A program made the translations under genes and the position numbers. Shown here piece by piece: positions 40,662-44,409 of a stretch of 64,000 bases of DNA; position 1 is the first letter of the stretch, and every line of letters starts with the position of its first letter. The stretch is from Oceanispirochaeta sp. (GTDB lineage: Bacteria > Spirochaetota > Spirochaetia > DSM-2461), in contig CAXXXD010000001.1 of the NCBI GenBank assembly GCA_963663385.2, forward strand, positions 320,001 through 384,000, given 5' to 3'. The notes under the pieces are model-generated. The model was not told the origin of the DNA. It did not search any database and saw only the letters and a program-made list of their open reading frames with translations.

Positions 40662-41825
40662 TCAAAAGGAGCGGCTGAAATTTTCTTCCGCCGTTTTTTC
40701 AACTTTTTTTCTGAATACCGACTTTGCAATCAGCTCCTCCAGCTTTGCCTCGAAGGCCTCTTCATCCACAGGGATTTCCACCATTTTTCCCTCAAAGCTG
40801 GAGAGCATAATGGCATTGTCCATGGCGATGGAGCCGATGCCCTCTGCAGCAGGCGCTATAAGCTCGGCTCTTCCGGCGATGGCGTCGCAGAAATTCTCAA
40901 GGATGATCCGATGCTCTCCCCCTCCGGCGTCAAAGGGTATATCAACGGTCCAGCACTCGGGCTTTTCAAAACCCTTTTCAGCGTTTTTAAGATGATTGAG
41001 AAGCGATTCCCTGTTCCGGAGAAAGGTCAGTCTGTCTCCTTCCCAGATCAGCCGACCCTGCTCTCCCGCAATTTCCAGACGGTTCGTCCCGGGAGCCTCT
41101 CCGGTCGATGTAATGAAATGCCCCACCATACCGTTATCGTATTCAAAGTAGGCCGTTACTTCGTCTTCCACTTCGATGTCATGGTATTTCCCCAGCGAGG
41201 CGAAGCCTCTGACTCGGTCGGGACAGCCGGCGAACCACTGAAACATATCGAGCTGATGGGGACACTGGTTCATGAGAACCCCGCCCCCCTCACCGGCCCA
41301 GGTGGCCCTCCAGCCTCCCGAATTATAGTAGGACTGAGTGCGGTACCAGTCGGTAATAATCCAGGTCATCCGGATCAGTTTCCCCAGTTCCCCCGCATCG
41401 ATCAGTTCCTTGATTTTCCGGGCGGCCCCCCGGGTCCTCTGCTGGAACATGGCGGAGAAAACCAGGCCGGGGGTCTCTTTCCGGGCGGCCTCCCAGGCGG
41501 AAATCATCTTCCGGATATCCTTCACATGGACGCCGACCGGTTTCTCTGTCAGAACGTGGATCCCTCTGGCAAAGGCCTCTACAGCGATGGTCGTGTGGGC
41601 GTAGTGGGGGGTGGCGATGACGATGCCGTCAATCCCGCCGGCGCCGAACAGATCTTCGGTCGAGTTATATCCCCTGCAGCCGTATAAGGCGGCAGCGGCG
41701 TCGGTCTTTTCCGCAGCAATATCGCAGACAGCAGCCAGCTCGGCGGTATCCATAGAAGTGATATCCCGGCAATGGCAGGTTCCCATATTTCCCAGGCCGA
41801 TAACGGCCAGTCTGATTTTATCCAT
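40662..41825 (-). CDS. Gfo/Idh/MocA oxidoreductase
   Basis: GLGNMG, IATPH, EKP, GGGVLMNQCPHQLD. Confidence 0.92.
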   Translation of the reverse strand: MDKIRLAVIGLGNMGTCHCRDITSMDTAELAAVCDIAAEKTDAAAALYGCRGYNSTEDLFGAGGIDGIVIATPHYAHTTIAVEAFARGIHVLTEKPVGVHVKDIRKMISAWEAARKETPGLVFSAMFQQRTRGAARKIKELIDAGELGKLIRMTWIITDWYRTQSYYNSGGWRATWAGEGGGVLMNQCPHQLDMFQWFAGCPDRVRGFASLGKYHDIEVEDEVTAYFEYDNGMVGHFITSTGEAPGTNRLEIAGEQGRLIWEGDRLTFLRNRESLLNHLKNAEKGFEKPECWTVDIPFDAGGGEHRIILENFCDAIAGRAELIAPAAEGIGSIAMDNAIMLSSFEGKMVEIPVDEEAFEAKLEELIAKSVFRKKVEKTAEENFSRSF

Positions 41826-41884
41826 TTATCTCTCCTATAAAAAGTCAATCATAAGCCTATTAACAAGCTTACAATTGAACCGGA

Positions 41885-42997
41885 TTACCCAGTTTTTACG
41901 GCATTGAATGCAGCCGCCTGCATCTTCAAGTACTTATCATCCGGAACCATCTTCAACGGATCAAAGGGTTCACGGGTTTTCAATATGGAGTACACTACCG
42001 TACTCATCTTTCTTGCAGAGGCGATAATACTCGTGCCGCTGCCCTTGTTCTTCTTCATCGCTCTGTACTTCGTCATGATACGGTAATTGCCAGTCGTTTT
42101 CCGAGTTCTAACCATTCCCATAACACACTGAACAAATGCCGTTCTCAGTTCTACAGCCCCTCTCTTTGTTATATGCCCATGATGAATCGTCTCATTGGAG
42201 TTCTGCACCCATGGTACAAGACCGGCATAAGCCGAATACTTCTTGGCACTGGCGTACCGCTTGATATCATCCGTATAGGCCCTAATAGTCGATGCCGTTA
42301 TCAATCCGACTCCCGGGATCGTCTGCAATAACTGTACATCCTCATCTTCCTTTACAAGTTCCAGCAGGACTTTCTCTAACTGCTTGACCTGGTTCGAAAC
42401 CTGATCTATCGTAGAAAGCAGCGGTTCTATCGCTTTGGCAGCGCTTCCGAAACTCCTATGGTCCACGAGACCGATGAGGATGCGCTGCCTTTCTTTTTTA
42501 CTCTGCAGCGCAGCTCTTTTTGTTTCAATTCCATACCCTAGAAGCAGTCCGTGAACCTGATTCTTCAAAGATACGACTGATTTAACAAGGATAGTTCTGG
42601 ATTTAAGAACTCTACGGATATCCTCACTCTCCTGAGAACAAAGCTGTGATTCGGGAAGCATATCTTTTTCCAAGAACTCTGCTAGAGTTCTGGCATCATG
42701 CTTATCCGTCTTTTTCACTGATTCATTTACAACTTTGAATTTCAGTGTATTCACAACCACCACCTCAATCCCTGCTAGCAATAGCTTGTTACGGAAGAAC
42801 CGGGCATTTCCTGTTGATTCCACTGCAGCCCTAACATCAAGGCCCTCTTCTGTATAGGACACTGCTTTCTCAAGAAATGCTCTGTAACCGTCCTCAGAGG
42901 TCGGATACATTCCTGATTCACAAATGCTTCTATCATCACTCAGGAAACAGACTGTTAACTGGGATTTGTGCAGATCCACTCCGATACTCATCTTCAT
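41885..42997 (-). CDS. IS110 DEDD transposase/recombinase
   Basis: GVDLHK, AVEST, KTDKHDA (RuvC-like DEDD), TIPGVG, AYAGLVP..QNS, ARK; ATG 42997 with TAGGAG RBS. Confidence 0.93.
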   Translation of the reverse strand: MKMSIGVDLHKSQLTVCFLSDDRSICESGMYPTSEDGYRAFLEKAVSYTEEGLDVRAAVESTGNARFFRNKLLLAGIEVVVVNTLKFKVVNESVKKTDKHDARTLAEFLEKDMLPESQLCSQESEDIRRVLKSRTILVKSVVSLKNQVHGLLLGYGIETKRAALQSKKERQRILIGLVDHRSFGSAAKAIEPLLSTIDQVSNQVKQLEKVLLELVKEDEDVQLLQTIPGVGLITASTIRAYTDDIKRYASAKKYSAYAGLVPWVQNSNETIHHGHITKRGAVELRTAFVQCVMGMVRTRKTTGNYRIMTKYRAMKKNKGSGTSIIASARKMSTVVYSILKTREPFDPLKMVPDDKYLKMQAAAFNAVKTG

Positions 42998-43011
42998 ACC
43001 TTCGCTCCTAT

Positions 43012-43172
43012 TGCCTAAAACAGCGCCTGTACGGTGAATTGATTCCATTCTCCTATCCGGTCTCGAAGACCATTGAATGTTTCGGTCACGGCTCTTCATT
43101 CTCCTGTACGGTCTCGGAGACCAGTAAAAATGGCGAACAGTAACCTGGCTGTTCTAAACGATGTTTAGAACA
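43012..43172 (-). ncRNA. Putative bridge/seek-type guide RNA in the IS110 non-coding end
   Basis: Hairpin TGTTCTAAAC-N3-GTTTAGAACA (43150-72), then two internal loops closed by GGTCT-NNN-AGACC whose strands match target and donor; ends approximate. Confidence 0.75.
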
Positions 43173-43177
43173 TTGTA

Positions 43178-44314
43178 TCAATCCACAAGCCTATGAAGAC
43201 TTTTTATCATTCCTCCTGTATATTCCAGTATTCGCGGTTCCACCCATGTTTCGAGAGGAATGGCAATCGGGCAGTTTTGAAAATGAGACTGGTAGAGAGC
43301 CAGTACGGTTTCCGTTGTCTCAGCCAGATCCGCCAGGCTCACGACAGGCTCATAGATCTCTCCCTTTTCCCTCATTTCCATAGCGGTTAAAATATCTCTG
43401 TAGTTCTCTCTGTGAAGCGCCCCGTAACAGGATTTTCCCGGGGCTTCAGACGTTCCGTTATCTGTAAAGGGTTCCAGCCTTTCAGTCAGTTCGGGATCTG
43501 TGCAGCTGAATCCACTGCTCCCGGTCAGAGTCAGAATCCCCCGGTCAAACCGCAGGGTCAGCCGCGGATCCCACGGAGTAGTAAGGTCATTCTCGAAATG
43601 CAGACTTATCTTCTGCGATTTCACAATGTCCCGGGGATAGCAAAGTTCTCCCGATCCTTTATCTTCCACTTCGATGGATGCGATTTTCTCTCTGTACAAG
43701 CGGTATTCCGCCGATTCCGGCCGGCCGATCAGATAGTGAAGGAGGTCCAGTGTATGAATCCCCTGATTGATGAGAGTCCCGCCCCCCTCCTCAAGCCATG
43801 TTCCCCTCCAGGAATCGCTTTCATAATAGGCGGGAGGTCTGGTACACAGGAATGTGATATCTCCCCCCAGAGTCTGTCCCAGAGTATTTTCCCGGATAAG
43901 ATTTCTCACTTCTCCGATCAGAGGGGAGAAGCGGTGCTGAAAGATCCCGAAAGAAAAGATTCCCCGTTCTTCCGCATTCAAGGCGGCAGTTTTCATACGG
44001 GCAAGCTGCTCCAGCGAGACAGCAAGGGGTTTTTCGCATATAACATGTTTGCCCGCTTCCAGGGCGTCAACCAGCGCCTGTTCATGAAGGTGGTGAGGAA
44101 GACAGAGCGCCACGGCCTGAATATCGGCAGAACACAGCATTTCCTTCCAGTCACTGTAAAGCCGACAGTTCCGACGGGAATCTAGTTTTGACAGTTTTTC
44201 CGGGTCTGTATCGCACAATGCCGACAACAAGGCCCGACCGTCATTCTCTATAGCCCAGGCATGGCTTTCCGCAATACTGCCGCATCCGATAATACCGATC
44301 TTCAGTTTCTTCAT
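43178..44314 (-). CDS. Gfo/Idh/MocA oxidoreductase; last 11 residues encoded by the IS end
   Basis: IGIIGCGSIA, CEKP, GGGTLINQGIHTLD; ATG 44314 preferred. Confidence 0.88.
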   Translation of the reverse strand: MKKLKIGIIGCGSIAESHAWAIENDGRALLSALCDTDPEKLSKLDSRRNCRLYSDWKEMLCSADIQAVALCLPHHLHEQALVDALEAGKHVICEKPLAVSLEQLARMKTAALNAEERGIFSFGIFQHRFSPLIGEVRNLIRENTLGQTLGGDITFLCTRPPAYYESDSWRGTWLEEGGGTLINQGIHTLDLLHYLIGRPESAEYRLYREKIASIEVEDKGSGELCYPRDIVKSQKISLHFENDLTTPWDPRLTLRFDRGILTLTGSSGFSCTDPELTERLEPFTDNGTSEAPGKSCYGALHRENYRDILTAMEMREKGEIYEPVVSLADLAETTETVLALYQSHFQNCPIAIPLETWVEPRILEYTGGMIKSLHRLVD

Positions 44315-44409
44315 ATCCCTACCATAATTCCGGTTCCAGCATTTATGAATGACTGTATTCTGAAGAAACATGGACTTTTTCTGACTATTTACTATAATCT
44401 AGGAGTATT

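Follow-up and report, generated by a model that had tools for sequence, protein, structure and literature searches.

The DNA described here is a stretch of 64,000 nucleotides (nt) from Oceanispirochaeta sp. (Bacteria; Spirochaetota; Spirochaetia; DSM-2461; GenBank assembly GCA_963663385.2, contig CAXXXD010000001.1, positions 320,001 to 384,000 of the forward strand), hereafter the window, whose own numbering is used throughout. On its minus strand, at 41832-43212, it carries a 1381-bp insertion sequence of the IS110 family (one AGGAG being counted with the right end), which lies between two genes encoding GFO/IDH/MocA oxidoreductases (40662-41825 and 43178-44371). The element consists of a 215-nt left end (43212-42998), a transposase gene and a 53-nt right end (41884-41832). 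Its non-coding left end is our subject, as the very probable source of the RNA that guides the recombinase of the element.

Protein searches used 41885-42994, one codon after the first ATG of the transposase. They matched the Pfam families DEDD_Tnp_IS110 (PF01548, 8.6e-21) and Transposase_20 (PF02371, 4.6e-19), the NCBIfam model NF033542 ‘IS110 family RNA-guided transposase’ (228 bits, cut-off 140) and the IS621 and ISCro4 transposases in the PDB (E ~1e-15). With phmmer, the protein matched IS4321 at 70.1 bits (residues 56-337) and IS621 at 61.3 bits (residues 200-348, i.e. the C-terminal ~150 residues only), while IS4321 and IS621 matched each other at 49.7 bits. By these scores the transposase appears slightly nearer to IS4321 than to IS621. 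It is found in 3 of the 38 genomes of the family (own genome included) and in 16 of 401 sampled genomes of the class (E <= 1e-60). Among genome contigs 76 loci were identified, in records from Spirochaetia, Desulfobacterales, Treponema, Lentisphaeria and others, and, of 8000 scored candidates in the protein search, at least 1740 had E <= 1e-20. No name for the element came from these relatives, since the 120 among the matches listed bear generic names only; the plasmid matches are also generically named, except for one ‘IS110-like element ISMno14 family transposase’ (H53).

The element is present in 10 copies of 99-100% identity on the 4 contigs of the own genome, with flanks that differ between copies. 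In the alignment of these copies, the left junction reads xACAGGAG then GAATGATAAAAAG, and the right junction TTGACTTTTTATAGGAG, after which come an A-rich spacer that varies and an ATG. AGGAG is present at both junctions, and the one at 43217-43213 is part of the target, not of the element. It is not a target duplication, because the left flanks of two orthologues, TTATGGAG (L046) and TTTTAGAG (L100), are unlike the right-end AGGAG; left flank and right end invariably agree in their last 2-3 nt only. Subterminal inverted repeats, complementary at 10 of 10 positions, lie 5 nt from each end of the element, and in 24 of 28 orthologues they are complementary at 8-10 of 10 positions. In Logan contigs from three of four DNA runs, the element is collapsed to a repeat unitig of 1386 bp (41832-43217), and in the fourth run (X6) to one of 1389 bp (41831-43219). 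The contigs of these four runs over 41500-43560 showed no joint with an empty site or a circle junction. Moreover, in a search for an empty site, the 688-nt left-flank DNA was unmatched in all 10 other genomes of the genus.

For comparisons between copies, 108 loci with the left-end motif were reduced to 42 distinct left ends, of which 33 came with transposases at least 50% identical to the query. Removal of a deletion derivative (L101) gave a set of 32 orthologues, and removal of four near-duplicates as well (L010, L017, L091 and L043) gave an alignment set of 28. The nine more distant left ends (eight from Lentisphaeria, Victivallales or Clostridia, plus L105) were left out.

Read on the minus strand, the left end contains four segments of the form (C/T)CG-N10-TG: G1, TCG-CCATTTTTAC-TG (43136-43122); G2, CCG-TACAGGAGAA-TG (43111-43097); G3, CCG-AAACATTCAA-TG (43085-43071); and G4, CCG-GATAGGAGAA-TG (43060-43046). 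The starts of successive segments are spaced by 25, 26 and 25 nt. GGTCTCCGAGACC (43122-43110) links G1 to G2, and GGTCTTCGAGACC (43071-43059) links G3 to G4; both are of the form GGTCT-NNN-AGACC. A sequence-only reading of the window, made by a model, had placed these segments and joining sequences exactly where we find them, downstream of a perfect 10-bp hairpin that is indeed present at 43172-43150, with a 3-nt loop. It had also described them as a four-unit array of 25-nt period, which has to be abandoned. A repeat search showed a 32-nt direct repeat, 84% identical, spaced by 51 nt, so that the true period is 51 nt with two N10 segments per unit; there are two loops, one target-binding and one donor-binding, and exactly two units are present in 28 of 28 aligned orthologues. 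The 39-nt pattern CG-N10-TGGTCT-N3-AGACCG-N10-TG occurs twice in the window and in none of 100 shuffles. Across the four segments of the 32 orthologues, the 5' bracket is CG in 118 of 128 cases, TG in 9 and GT in 1, never CCA, and the 3' bracket is TG in 120 and TA in 8.

The 226-nt left end folds with a minimum free energy of -68.8 kcal/mol (z = -3.9), and none of 200 shuffles folds as well. RNAalifold on the 28 orthologues recovered a long-range stem (P1), an 11-bp stem of the first loop and two inner hairpins, with 12 of 28 pairs compensated. We counted covariation by applying a structure written by hand, of 32 pairs, to a MAFFT alignment of the same orthologues that was not fitted to it; the 5' stem-loop, whose alignment columns are out of register, was outside this count. 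We found 91.3% of the cells paired, vs. 27-44% when the partners were slid by 1-3 columns. Both-sided changes affect 15 of the 32 pairs, and the covariation score was 0.321 vs. 0.181 for shuffled alignments, none of 500 shuffles reaching the observed value. The closing U-G pair of each inner hairpin is formed by the U of the UG that follows G1 or G3 and the G of the CG that precedes G2 or G4 (27/28 and 28/28, respectively). The donor loop has no stem of its own and sits between the first-loop stem and the 3' strand of P1. No meaningful match was obtained from Rfam 15 over 41500-43600 (best E 0.6, for an unrelated family).

A further helix, between 43159-43148 and 43024-43013, is an alternative to part of this fold. 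It has 12 bp in the window copy, roughly 7-12 bp in orthologues, and is present in 28 of 28. The mean duplex energy of own pairs is -15.55 kcal/mol vs. -8.38 for swapped pairs, and none of 300 permutations reached the own value. This helix competes with the 5' stem-loop and crosses P1, and its segment at 43013-43024 lies just upstream of the Shine-Dalgarno sequence of the transposase. It may be a switch or a pseudoknot linking the folding of the guide RNA to translation of the transposase. Separately, the 10-nt ACCGTACAGG (minus strand), which comprises the start of G2 with its CG bracket (43103-43112), recurs just after the 3' strand of P1 (43026-43035). At that place orthologues have CCG-nA-nAGG, a fifth guide-like segment.

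In the window copy, each of the four segments matches a flank or an end of the element. G2 equals the left flank TACAGGAG at 8 of 8 positions and G4 the right-end TATAGGAG at 7 of 8, whereas G3 and G1 match as reverse complements: that of G3 includes GAATG, the first 5 nt of the element, and matches at 6 of 8 positions, while that of G1 agrees with the right flank AGATAAATGG at 7 of 10 positions, including the ATG of the downstream gene. The counts for G2, G3 and G4 are those already given in the sequence-only reading.

We then compared the guides with flanks and ends across orthologues. For G2, 54 sites from 29 orthologues were used, 8 element-end-like flanks and flanks of fewer than 8 bases being dropped. 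The left flank is matched at 8/8 positions at 14 sites, at 7/8 at 31 and at 6/8 at 9. At the four variable positions the match was 0.773, vs. 0.496 with the guides swapped, and none of 5000 swaps reached it. For G3, agreement is complete in 29 of 32 orthologues (3 mismatch), positions 3-7 of its reverse complement being the same as the first 5 nt of the element, and the variants change jointly with the element end (GAATG in 20, GTATG in 4, GCACG in 3 and GCATG in 2). Positions 2-8 of G4 are the same as the element's final 7 nt in 27 of 28 orthologues, three of these having ATGGGAG on both sides.

G1 fits best at offset 0, where its CAU stands opposite an ATG at positions 7-9 after AGGAG (0.475 vs. 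0.432; 16 of 1000 permutations reach this value). A right-target guide in the register of G3 (offset -2) was rejected, its match being worse (0.342 vs. 0.475 at offset 0); the 2-nt offset of G1 relative to G3, which the sequence-only reading had remarked, is real. When sites were anchored on the ATG (58 sites, 24 orthologues; spacer and +4 base), the match to G1 was 0.463, vs. 0.392 after swapping of the guides (the observed value being reached 6 times in 5000) and 0.379 after positional shuffling of the own guide (0 of 5000). The guide-specific signal comes from positions -1 (0.59 vs. 0.28) and -2 (0.62 vs. 0.44). Thus G1 and G3, the right-arm guides, each read some 5 nt with the pattern NN-ATG.

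The nature of the target is apparent from the junctions. Beside the own copies whose left flank is TACAGGAG, the remaining 4 of 10 differ from it at 1-3 of the first three positions. In all 10 right flanks of the own genome an ATG stands 7-9 nt after AGGAG (0-based index 6-8), and the ATGs after these 10 junctions open reading frames of 98 to >500 codons. Of 60 right junctions examined in the family, 54 have, beginning 5-10 nt after AGGAG, an open reading frame (ORF) that is either 60 codons or longer or still open where the locus ends. The insertion site of the family is therefore the interval that separates the Shine-Dalgarno sequence of a host gene from its start codon, the element lying in the sense of that gene. 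The own genome contains 355 TACAGGAG sites (ten inside element copies counted), of which 6 are occupied and 349 free. An ATG at index 6-8 after AGGAG follows 6 of 6 occupied sites vs. 22 of 349 free sites (Fisher P = 1.4e-7). Against G1, the right flanks of the occupied sites match at 7, 7, 6, 2, 6 and 5 of 10 positions, and only 7 of the 349 free sites match at 6 or more. At the locus in the window, the upstream oxidoreductase ORF (43178-44371) now ends within the element. The element divides what appears to be an operon of the two oxidoreductase genes, and on our reading of the sequence before insertion the upstream ORF would have stopped at a TAA that overlapped the downstream gene's start.

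Table 1. Features of the insertion sequence and its target in the window (coordinates of the window; sequences read on the minus strand)
Feature	Position	Strand	Evidence
Insertion sequence of the IS110 family	41832..43212	-	10 own-genome copies; boundaries from aligned junctions
Left target arm TACAGGAG, host Shine-Dalgarno region with the shared AGGAG	43213..43220	-	6/10 own copies
Left end of the element = right donor arm GAATGATAAA	43203..43212	-	first 5 nt complementary to G3 in 29/32 orthologues
Extended -10-like TGATAAAAA, overlapping the left subterminal repeat	43209-43201	-	present in 27/32 orthologues
Left subterminal inverted repeat ATAAAAAGTC	43198..43207	-	10/10 complementary to 41837-41846
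P1, 5' strand GUGGAUUGAU, pairs with 43043-43034	43177..43186	-	helix 1: 4/6 pairs changed on both sides
5' stem-loop, 10 bp perfect, 3-nt loop	43150..43172	-	fold; inverted-repeat search
Outer stem of the target loop, 5' strand GGUUACUGUUC, pairs with 43094-43084	43135..43145	-	helix 3: 95% of cells paired; 3 both-sided pairs
G1, right-target guide CCAUUUUUAC	43124..43133	-	nCAU in 31/32 orthologues; ATG-anchored match
Inner hairpin 1 GGUCUccgAGACC	43110..43122	-	helices 4-5, covarying
G2, left-target guide UACAGGAGAA, in the sense of the left flank, pairs with the bottom strand	43099..43108	-	covariation with left flank
Outer stem of the target loop, 3' strand GAGCCGUGACC	43084..43094	-	RNAalifold; covariation
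G3, right-donor guide AAACAUUCAA, CAUUC complementary to the first 5 nt of the element	43073..43082	-	29/32 orthologues
Inner hairpin 2 GGUCUucgAGACC	43059..43071	-	helix 6: 96.4% paired; 3 both-sided pairs
G4, left-donor guide GAUAGGAGAA, AUAGGAG = last 7 nt of the element	43048..43057	-	27/28 orthologues
P1, 3' strand AUCAAUUCAC, closes the donor-binding loop into a multi-helix junction	43034..43043	-	fold; covariation
Segment GCUGUUUUAGGC, can pair with the 3' strand of the 5' stem-loop (alternative or pseudoknot helix)	43013..43024	-	duplex energies
Transposase (recombinase) gene, 370 amino acids, ATG at 42997	41885..42997	-	Pfam; NCBIfam
-35-like TTGACT, preceding the right subterminal repeat	41848-41843	-	present in 24/28 orthologues
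Right subterminal inverted repeat GACUUUUUAU	41837..41846	-	inverted-repeat search
Right end of the element = left donor arm TATAGGAG, putative replacement of the host Shine-Dalgarno sequence	41832..41839	-	junction alignment
Right target arm AGATAAATGG, with the ATG (41825-41823) of the GFO/IDH/MocA oxidoreductase gene 40662-41825	41822..41831	-	junctions; ORFs

The fold, the four complementarities with their covariation, the pattern of insertion sites and the repeats at the ends are shown by the sequences. We conclude with high confidence that the minus-strand stretch at approximately 43195-43030 is the gene of a bridge RNA (seekRNA) belonging to this IS110-family insertion sequence. A guide RNA of an IS110-family recombinase was also what the sequence-only reading had proposed, with G1 as right-target, G2 as left-target, G3 as right-donor and G4 as left-donor guide. 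Both the proposal and the four assignments are upheld by the 10 own-genome copies and about 30 orthologues. That reading had suggested comparing the N10 segments of homologues with their insertion sites, and in the comparison made here across orthologues the two covary. The mechanism itself is already known, the RNA-guided activity of the IS110 family having been established experimentally in 2024 (PMC11208160, PMC11187229), and our finding leaves it unchanged.

Several points weigh against this interpretation. The bridge RNA is predicted from DNA, a look for sequencing runs containing the stretch having listed no RNA run, and its ends, the cleavage positions and the core are deduced. Pairing by the right-target guide is weak, with little or no signal at positions -6 to -3 and +4, and the registers of G1 and G3 in their N10 windows differ by 2 nt. 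No pairing by handshake guides was recognised when the orthologue table was inspected by eye. Position 9 of G2 is A in 32 of 32 orthologues, and the first base of the element is always G. In the same way, the two bases that follow AGGAG in G2 and G4 (AA, AT, AC or AG) showed by eye no match to, or covariation with, the bases that begin the element or the right flank. The spacing of the ATG after AGGAG is variable (index 4-8), so that survival of those insertions that keep the host gene translated could add to the pattern of sites. The fold of the single sequence pairs G1 with G2, and the loops would therefore be open only if held by protein or DNA. Finally, the promoter that we propose below for the circle junction was read by eye: a consensus promoter scan did not report it, and listed no promoter on the minus strand of the left end.

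With the bridge RNA as the preferred reading and the IS621 mechanism as a guide, the following course of events can be proposed. Each loop would present a pair of guides of about 10 nt around a short hairpin, each guide being bracketed by (C/U)CG and UG. G1, through CAU and the next 2 nt, would pair with the top strand at NN-ATG, the start codon lying 6 (5-8) nt downstream. The element would excise as a circle in which its two ends abut to form the donor site, and the junction would probably also create a promoter, with TTGACT, 17 nt and TG-n-TAAAAA. A tetramer of the recombinase, bound to both loops, would exchange strands at a shared core at the 3' end of AGGAG, probably AG (CT on the other strand). 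After strand exchange the element would stand downstream of the Shine-Dalgarno sequence and upstream of the ATG, in the orientation of the host gene and without target duplication. The right end TATAGGAG would then supply a new Shine-Dalgarno sequence at the original spacing, and the former Shine-Dalgarno sequence of the host would drive a mini-ORF of 10 codons. Read-through from the host promoter could supply both the bridge RNA and the transposase. Excision of IS621 is supported by read-through from flanking genes (PMC13626964), and in our element, insertion in sense orientation within a 5' leader would provide for it.

Two features of the ends touch on this course of events. The ATG at 43210-43208, in the left end, opens the 10-codon mini-ORF MIKSLHRLVD, with its stop at 43178 inside the 5' strand of P1; by eye, its first four codons are conserved in orthologues and its length is variable. 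In the right end, an AT-rich hairpin (window 41845-41878, minus strand; 15 pairs, 3 of them G-C) is followed by CTTTTTAT and resembles a terminator. The T run after this hairpin is part of the subterminal repeat, and the hairpin, if it is a terminator, would restrict read-through into the host gene.

We compared the layout of the element with the two groups described in the literature. According to Durrant et al. (2024, PMC11208160), of the bridge RNA's two internal loops, one binds the target and the other the donor; members of the IS110 group have a long left end, a short right end and subterminal repeats of 2-3 bp, and those of the IS1111 group a long right end, subterminal repeats of 7-17 bp and donor-binding bases that often lie in a multi-loop. 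The order within a loop is given by Hiraizumi et al. (2024, PMC11208158) as stem, left guide, stem-loop, right guide and 2-nt handshake guides, with a CT core. Siddiquee et al. (2024, PMC11187229) report that in IS1111 seekRNAs the complement of the top strand comes first, and that the order is reversed in the IS110-type ISEc21.

As described in the cited passages, IS621 shares with our element a recombinase with DEDD and Tnp domains, an RNA encoded upstream of the gene, in a long left end, a 5' stem-loop with the target-binding and then the donor-binding loop after it, two guides per loop (one per DNA strand) around an inner stem-loop, the absence of target duplication and a promoter that is probably rebuilt at the circle junction. 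In contrast with IS621, the guides come in the reverse order, that for the top strand (right arm) on the 5' side and that for the bottom strand (left arm) on the 3' side; each subterminal inverted repeat has 10 bp instead of 2-3 bp; a long-range stem closes the donor loop, in a multi-helix junction; the core is not covered by the 5'-side guides and no handshake guides were recognised. The protein similarity is also low, at 61 bits over the C-terminal 150 residues only. The IS1111 seekRNAs of ISEc11, ISPa11, ISKpn4 and ISPst6 resemble ours in having the complement of the top strand 5' of the match to the bottom strand (PMC11187229), and IS1111 elements resemble it by their long subterminal inverted repeats and, in many members, by donor-binding bases in a multi-loop (Durrant et al., PMC11208160). 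In addition, the transposase aligns with that of IS4321 over most of its length. Unlike in the IS1111 members described there, however, the RNA is upstream, in a 215-nt left end, the right end having only 53 nt. The layout thus appears to mix the traits of the two groups and to differ from both as they are defined in these papers, because the position of the RNA is that of IS110, whereas the guide order, the 10-bp repeats and the multi-helix donor loop are those of IS1111.

This guide order would be that of an IS621-type complex acting on the opposite strand, where AG reads CT, with the gene block inverted relative to the recombination site. It is possible, though we hold the idea only tentatively, that this widespread family represents a third layout class of IS110-type recombinases, in which the inverted gene block would lead to sense entry into translation initiation regions, to the exchange of the host Shine-Dalgarno sequence for its own and to read-through from the host, together with the helix switch considered above. 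Against any claim about layout, the comparison rests on definitions of the groups taken from published papers. There is a real chance, short of an even one, that the RNA is a bridge RNA of a layout already covered by published surveys and that the mixture of traits is neither new nor meaningful. The primary papers, as far as their cited passages go, speak against this by describing two combinations, a left-end RNA with the bottom-strand guide first and a right-end RNA with the top-strand guide first, and a full-text literature search found no paper that joins IS110, bridge RNA and targeting of Shine-Dalgarno sequence and start codon.

The type of target is not new. The insertion site of IS900 lies between a ribosome-binding site and a start codon. 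This IS110-family element of Mycobacterium avium subsp. paratuberculosis is said to target translation initiation signals in the title of Doran et al. 1997 (in PMC8141618), and we find the same kind of signals used here. The strand opposite the transposase of IS900 carries the hed ORF, which has no ribosome-binding site or start codon of its own and is said to be served by host signals (PMC8141618). In contrast, the transposase of our element lies in the sense of the host gene, and there is no long antisense ORF.

The sequence-only reading had called the architecture reminiscent of TIGR systems. The likeness is real, and Faure et al. (2025, PMC12045711) had already reported it for bridge RNAs in general; what did not stand is the array of units, there being two with fixed roles only. 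In that paper, tigRNAs of about 36 nt carry spacers of 8-12 nt between a box C (CCA) and a box D (UG), and the Tas effector is a Nop domain, alone or fused to a nuclease. The left end shares with these systems two short spacers per unit directed at opposite DNA strands, short flanking motifs with UG after the spacer, and, in the protein that goes with it, a Nop-like RNA-binding domain. One could take it for a TIGR-like array whose independent units are processed to separate small RNAs guiding a Tas-like nuclease, a reading that we consider very improbable. The bracketing of N10 by (C/U)CG and UG in nearly all orthologues, the 84% identity of the two units over 32 nt and the box C/D-flanked tandem spacers described by Faure et al. 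would suit such an array, as would a weak match to the NCBIfam model TIGR_Tas_endo (NF052498). However, this match, at 29 bits, is far under the cut-off of 100, vs. 228 bits for the IS110 transposase model, and the protein is a complete recombinase where TIGR systems have a Tas nuclease or a Nop protein on its own. There are two units in every aligned orthologue vs. mostly 5-15 in the TIGR arrays of that paper. These two have fixed and different jobs, the first covarying with the flanks and the second with the element ends, and they are closed by long helices, the single covarying stem P1 enclosing both. The 5' bracket is moreover (C/U)CG and not CCA. Very improbable, too, is that the stretch is an ordinary 5' leader of the transposase mRNA, or a set of transposase-binding repeats acting at the DNA level, with flank matches that reflect a target preference read by the protein: it does lie directly upstream of the transposase gene, and the conserved alternative helix, reaching the region beside the transposase Shine-Dalgarno sequence, suggests some translational control, but the N10 bases change along with target or ends across orthologues, where a protein-read site predicts no such change, the helices covary as RNA, and the RNA-guided mechanism of the family is established by experiment (PMC11208160, PMC11187229).

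Some further observations concern the sites that these elements may use. The initiation region of the transposase itself (43005-43009 and 42995-42997) reads AATAGGAG, 7 nt and ATG, and resembles the left arm of target and donor, so that the element could in principle target itself or its relatives. In two loci (L045, 1142-1284, and L061, ~1144-1284), a transposase-less element of ~143 bp with the same end motifs, starting with GAATGATAAAA and ending with ACTTTTTATAGGAG, lies directly upstream of a full copy, and the full copy therefore appears to be inserted into the Shine-Dalgarno sequence brought by the small element. A BLAST search with this 143-bp element (G146) matched only the query copy. 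In the own genome, at two places on C4, palindromic insertions of ~50 bp that start with xCATGATAAAAGGG directly follow CAGGAG and have an ATG a short way downstream; these could be remnants, or else miniature elements whose target is similar.

The left end of this element is thus a well-supported bridge RNA of known mechanism, in a family whose layout combines traits of two described groups. As a clean natural case, it lets the four guides of a bridge RNA all be read and compared with a large number of insertion sites. The order of the guides and the place where the RNA lies in the element come out as separable traits, which bears on the divergence of the IS110 and IS1111 groups. Homing in sense orientation to sites made of a Shine-Dalgarno sequence and an ATG, with replacement of the Shine-Dalgarno sequence, amounts to a natural promoter-trap design, and the compact recombinase of 370 amino acids, with a bridge RNA of ~160 nt and guides that are short and well defined, could be a further scaffold for programmable insertion.

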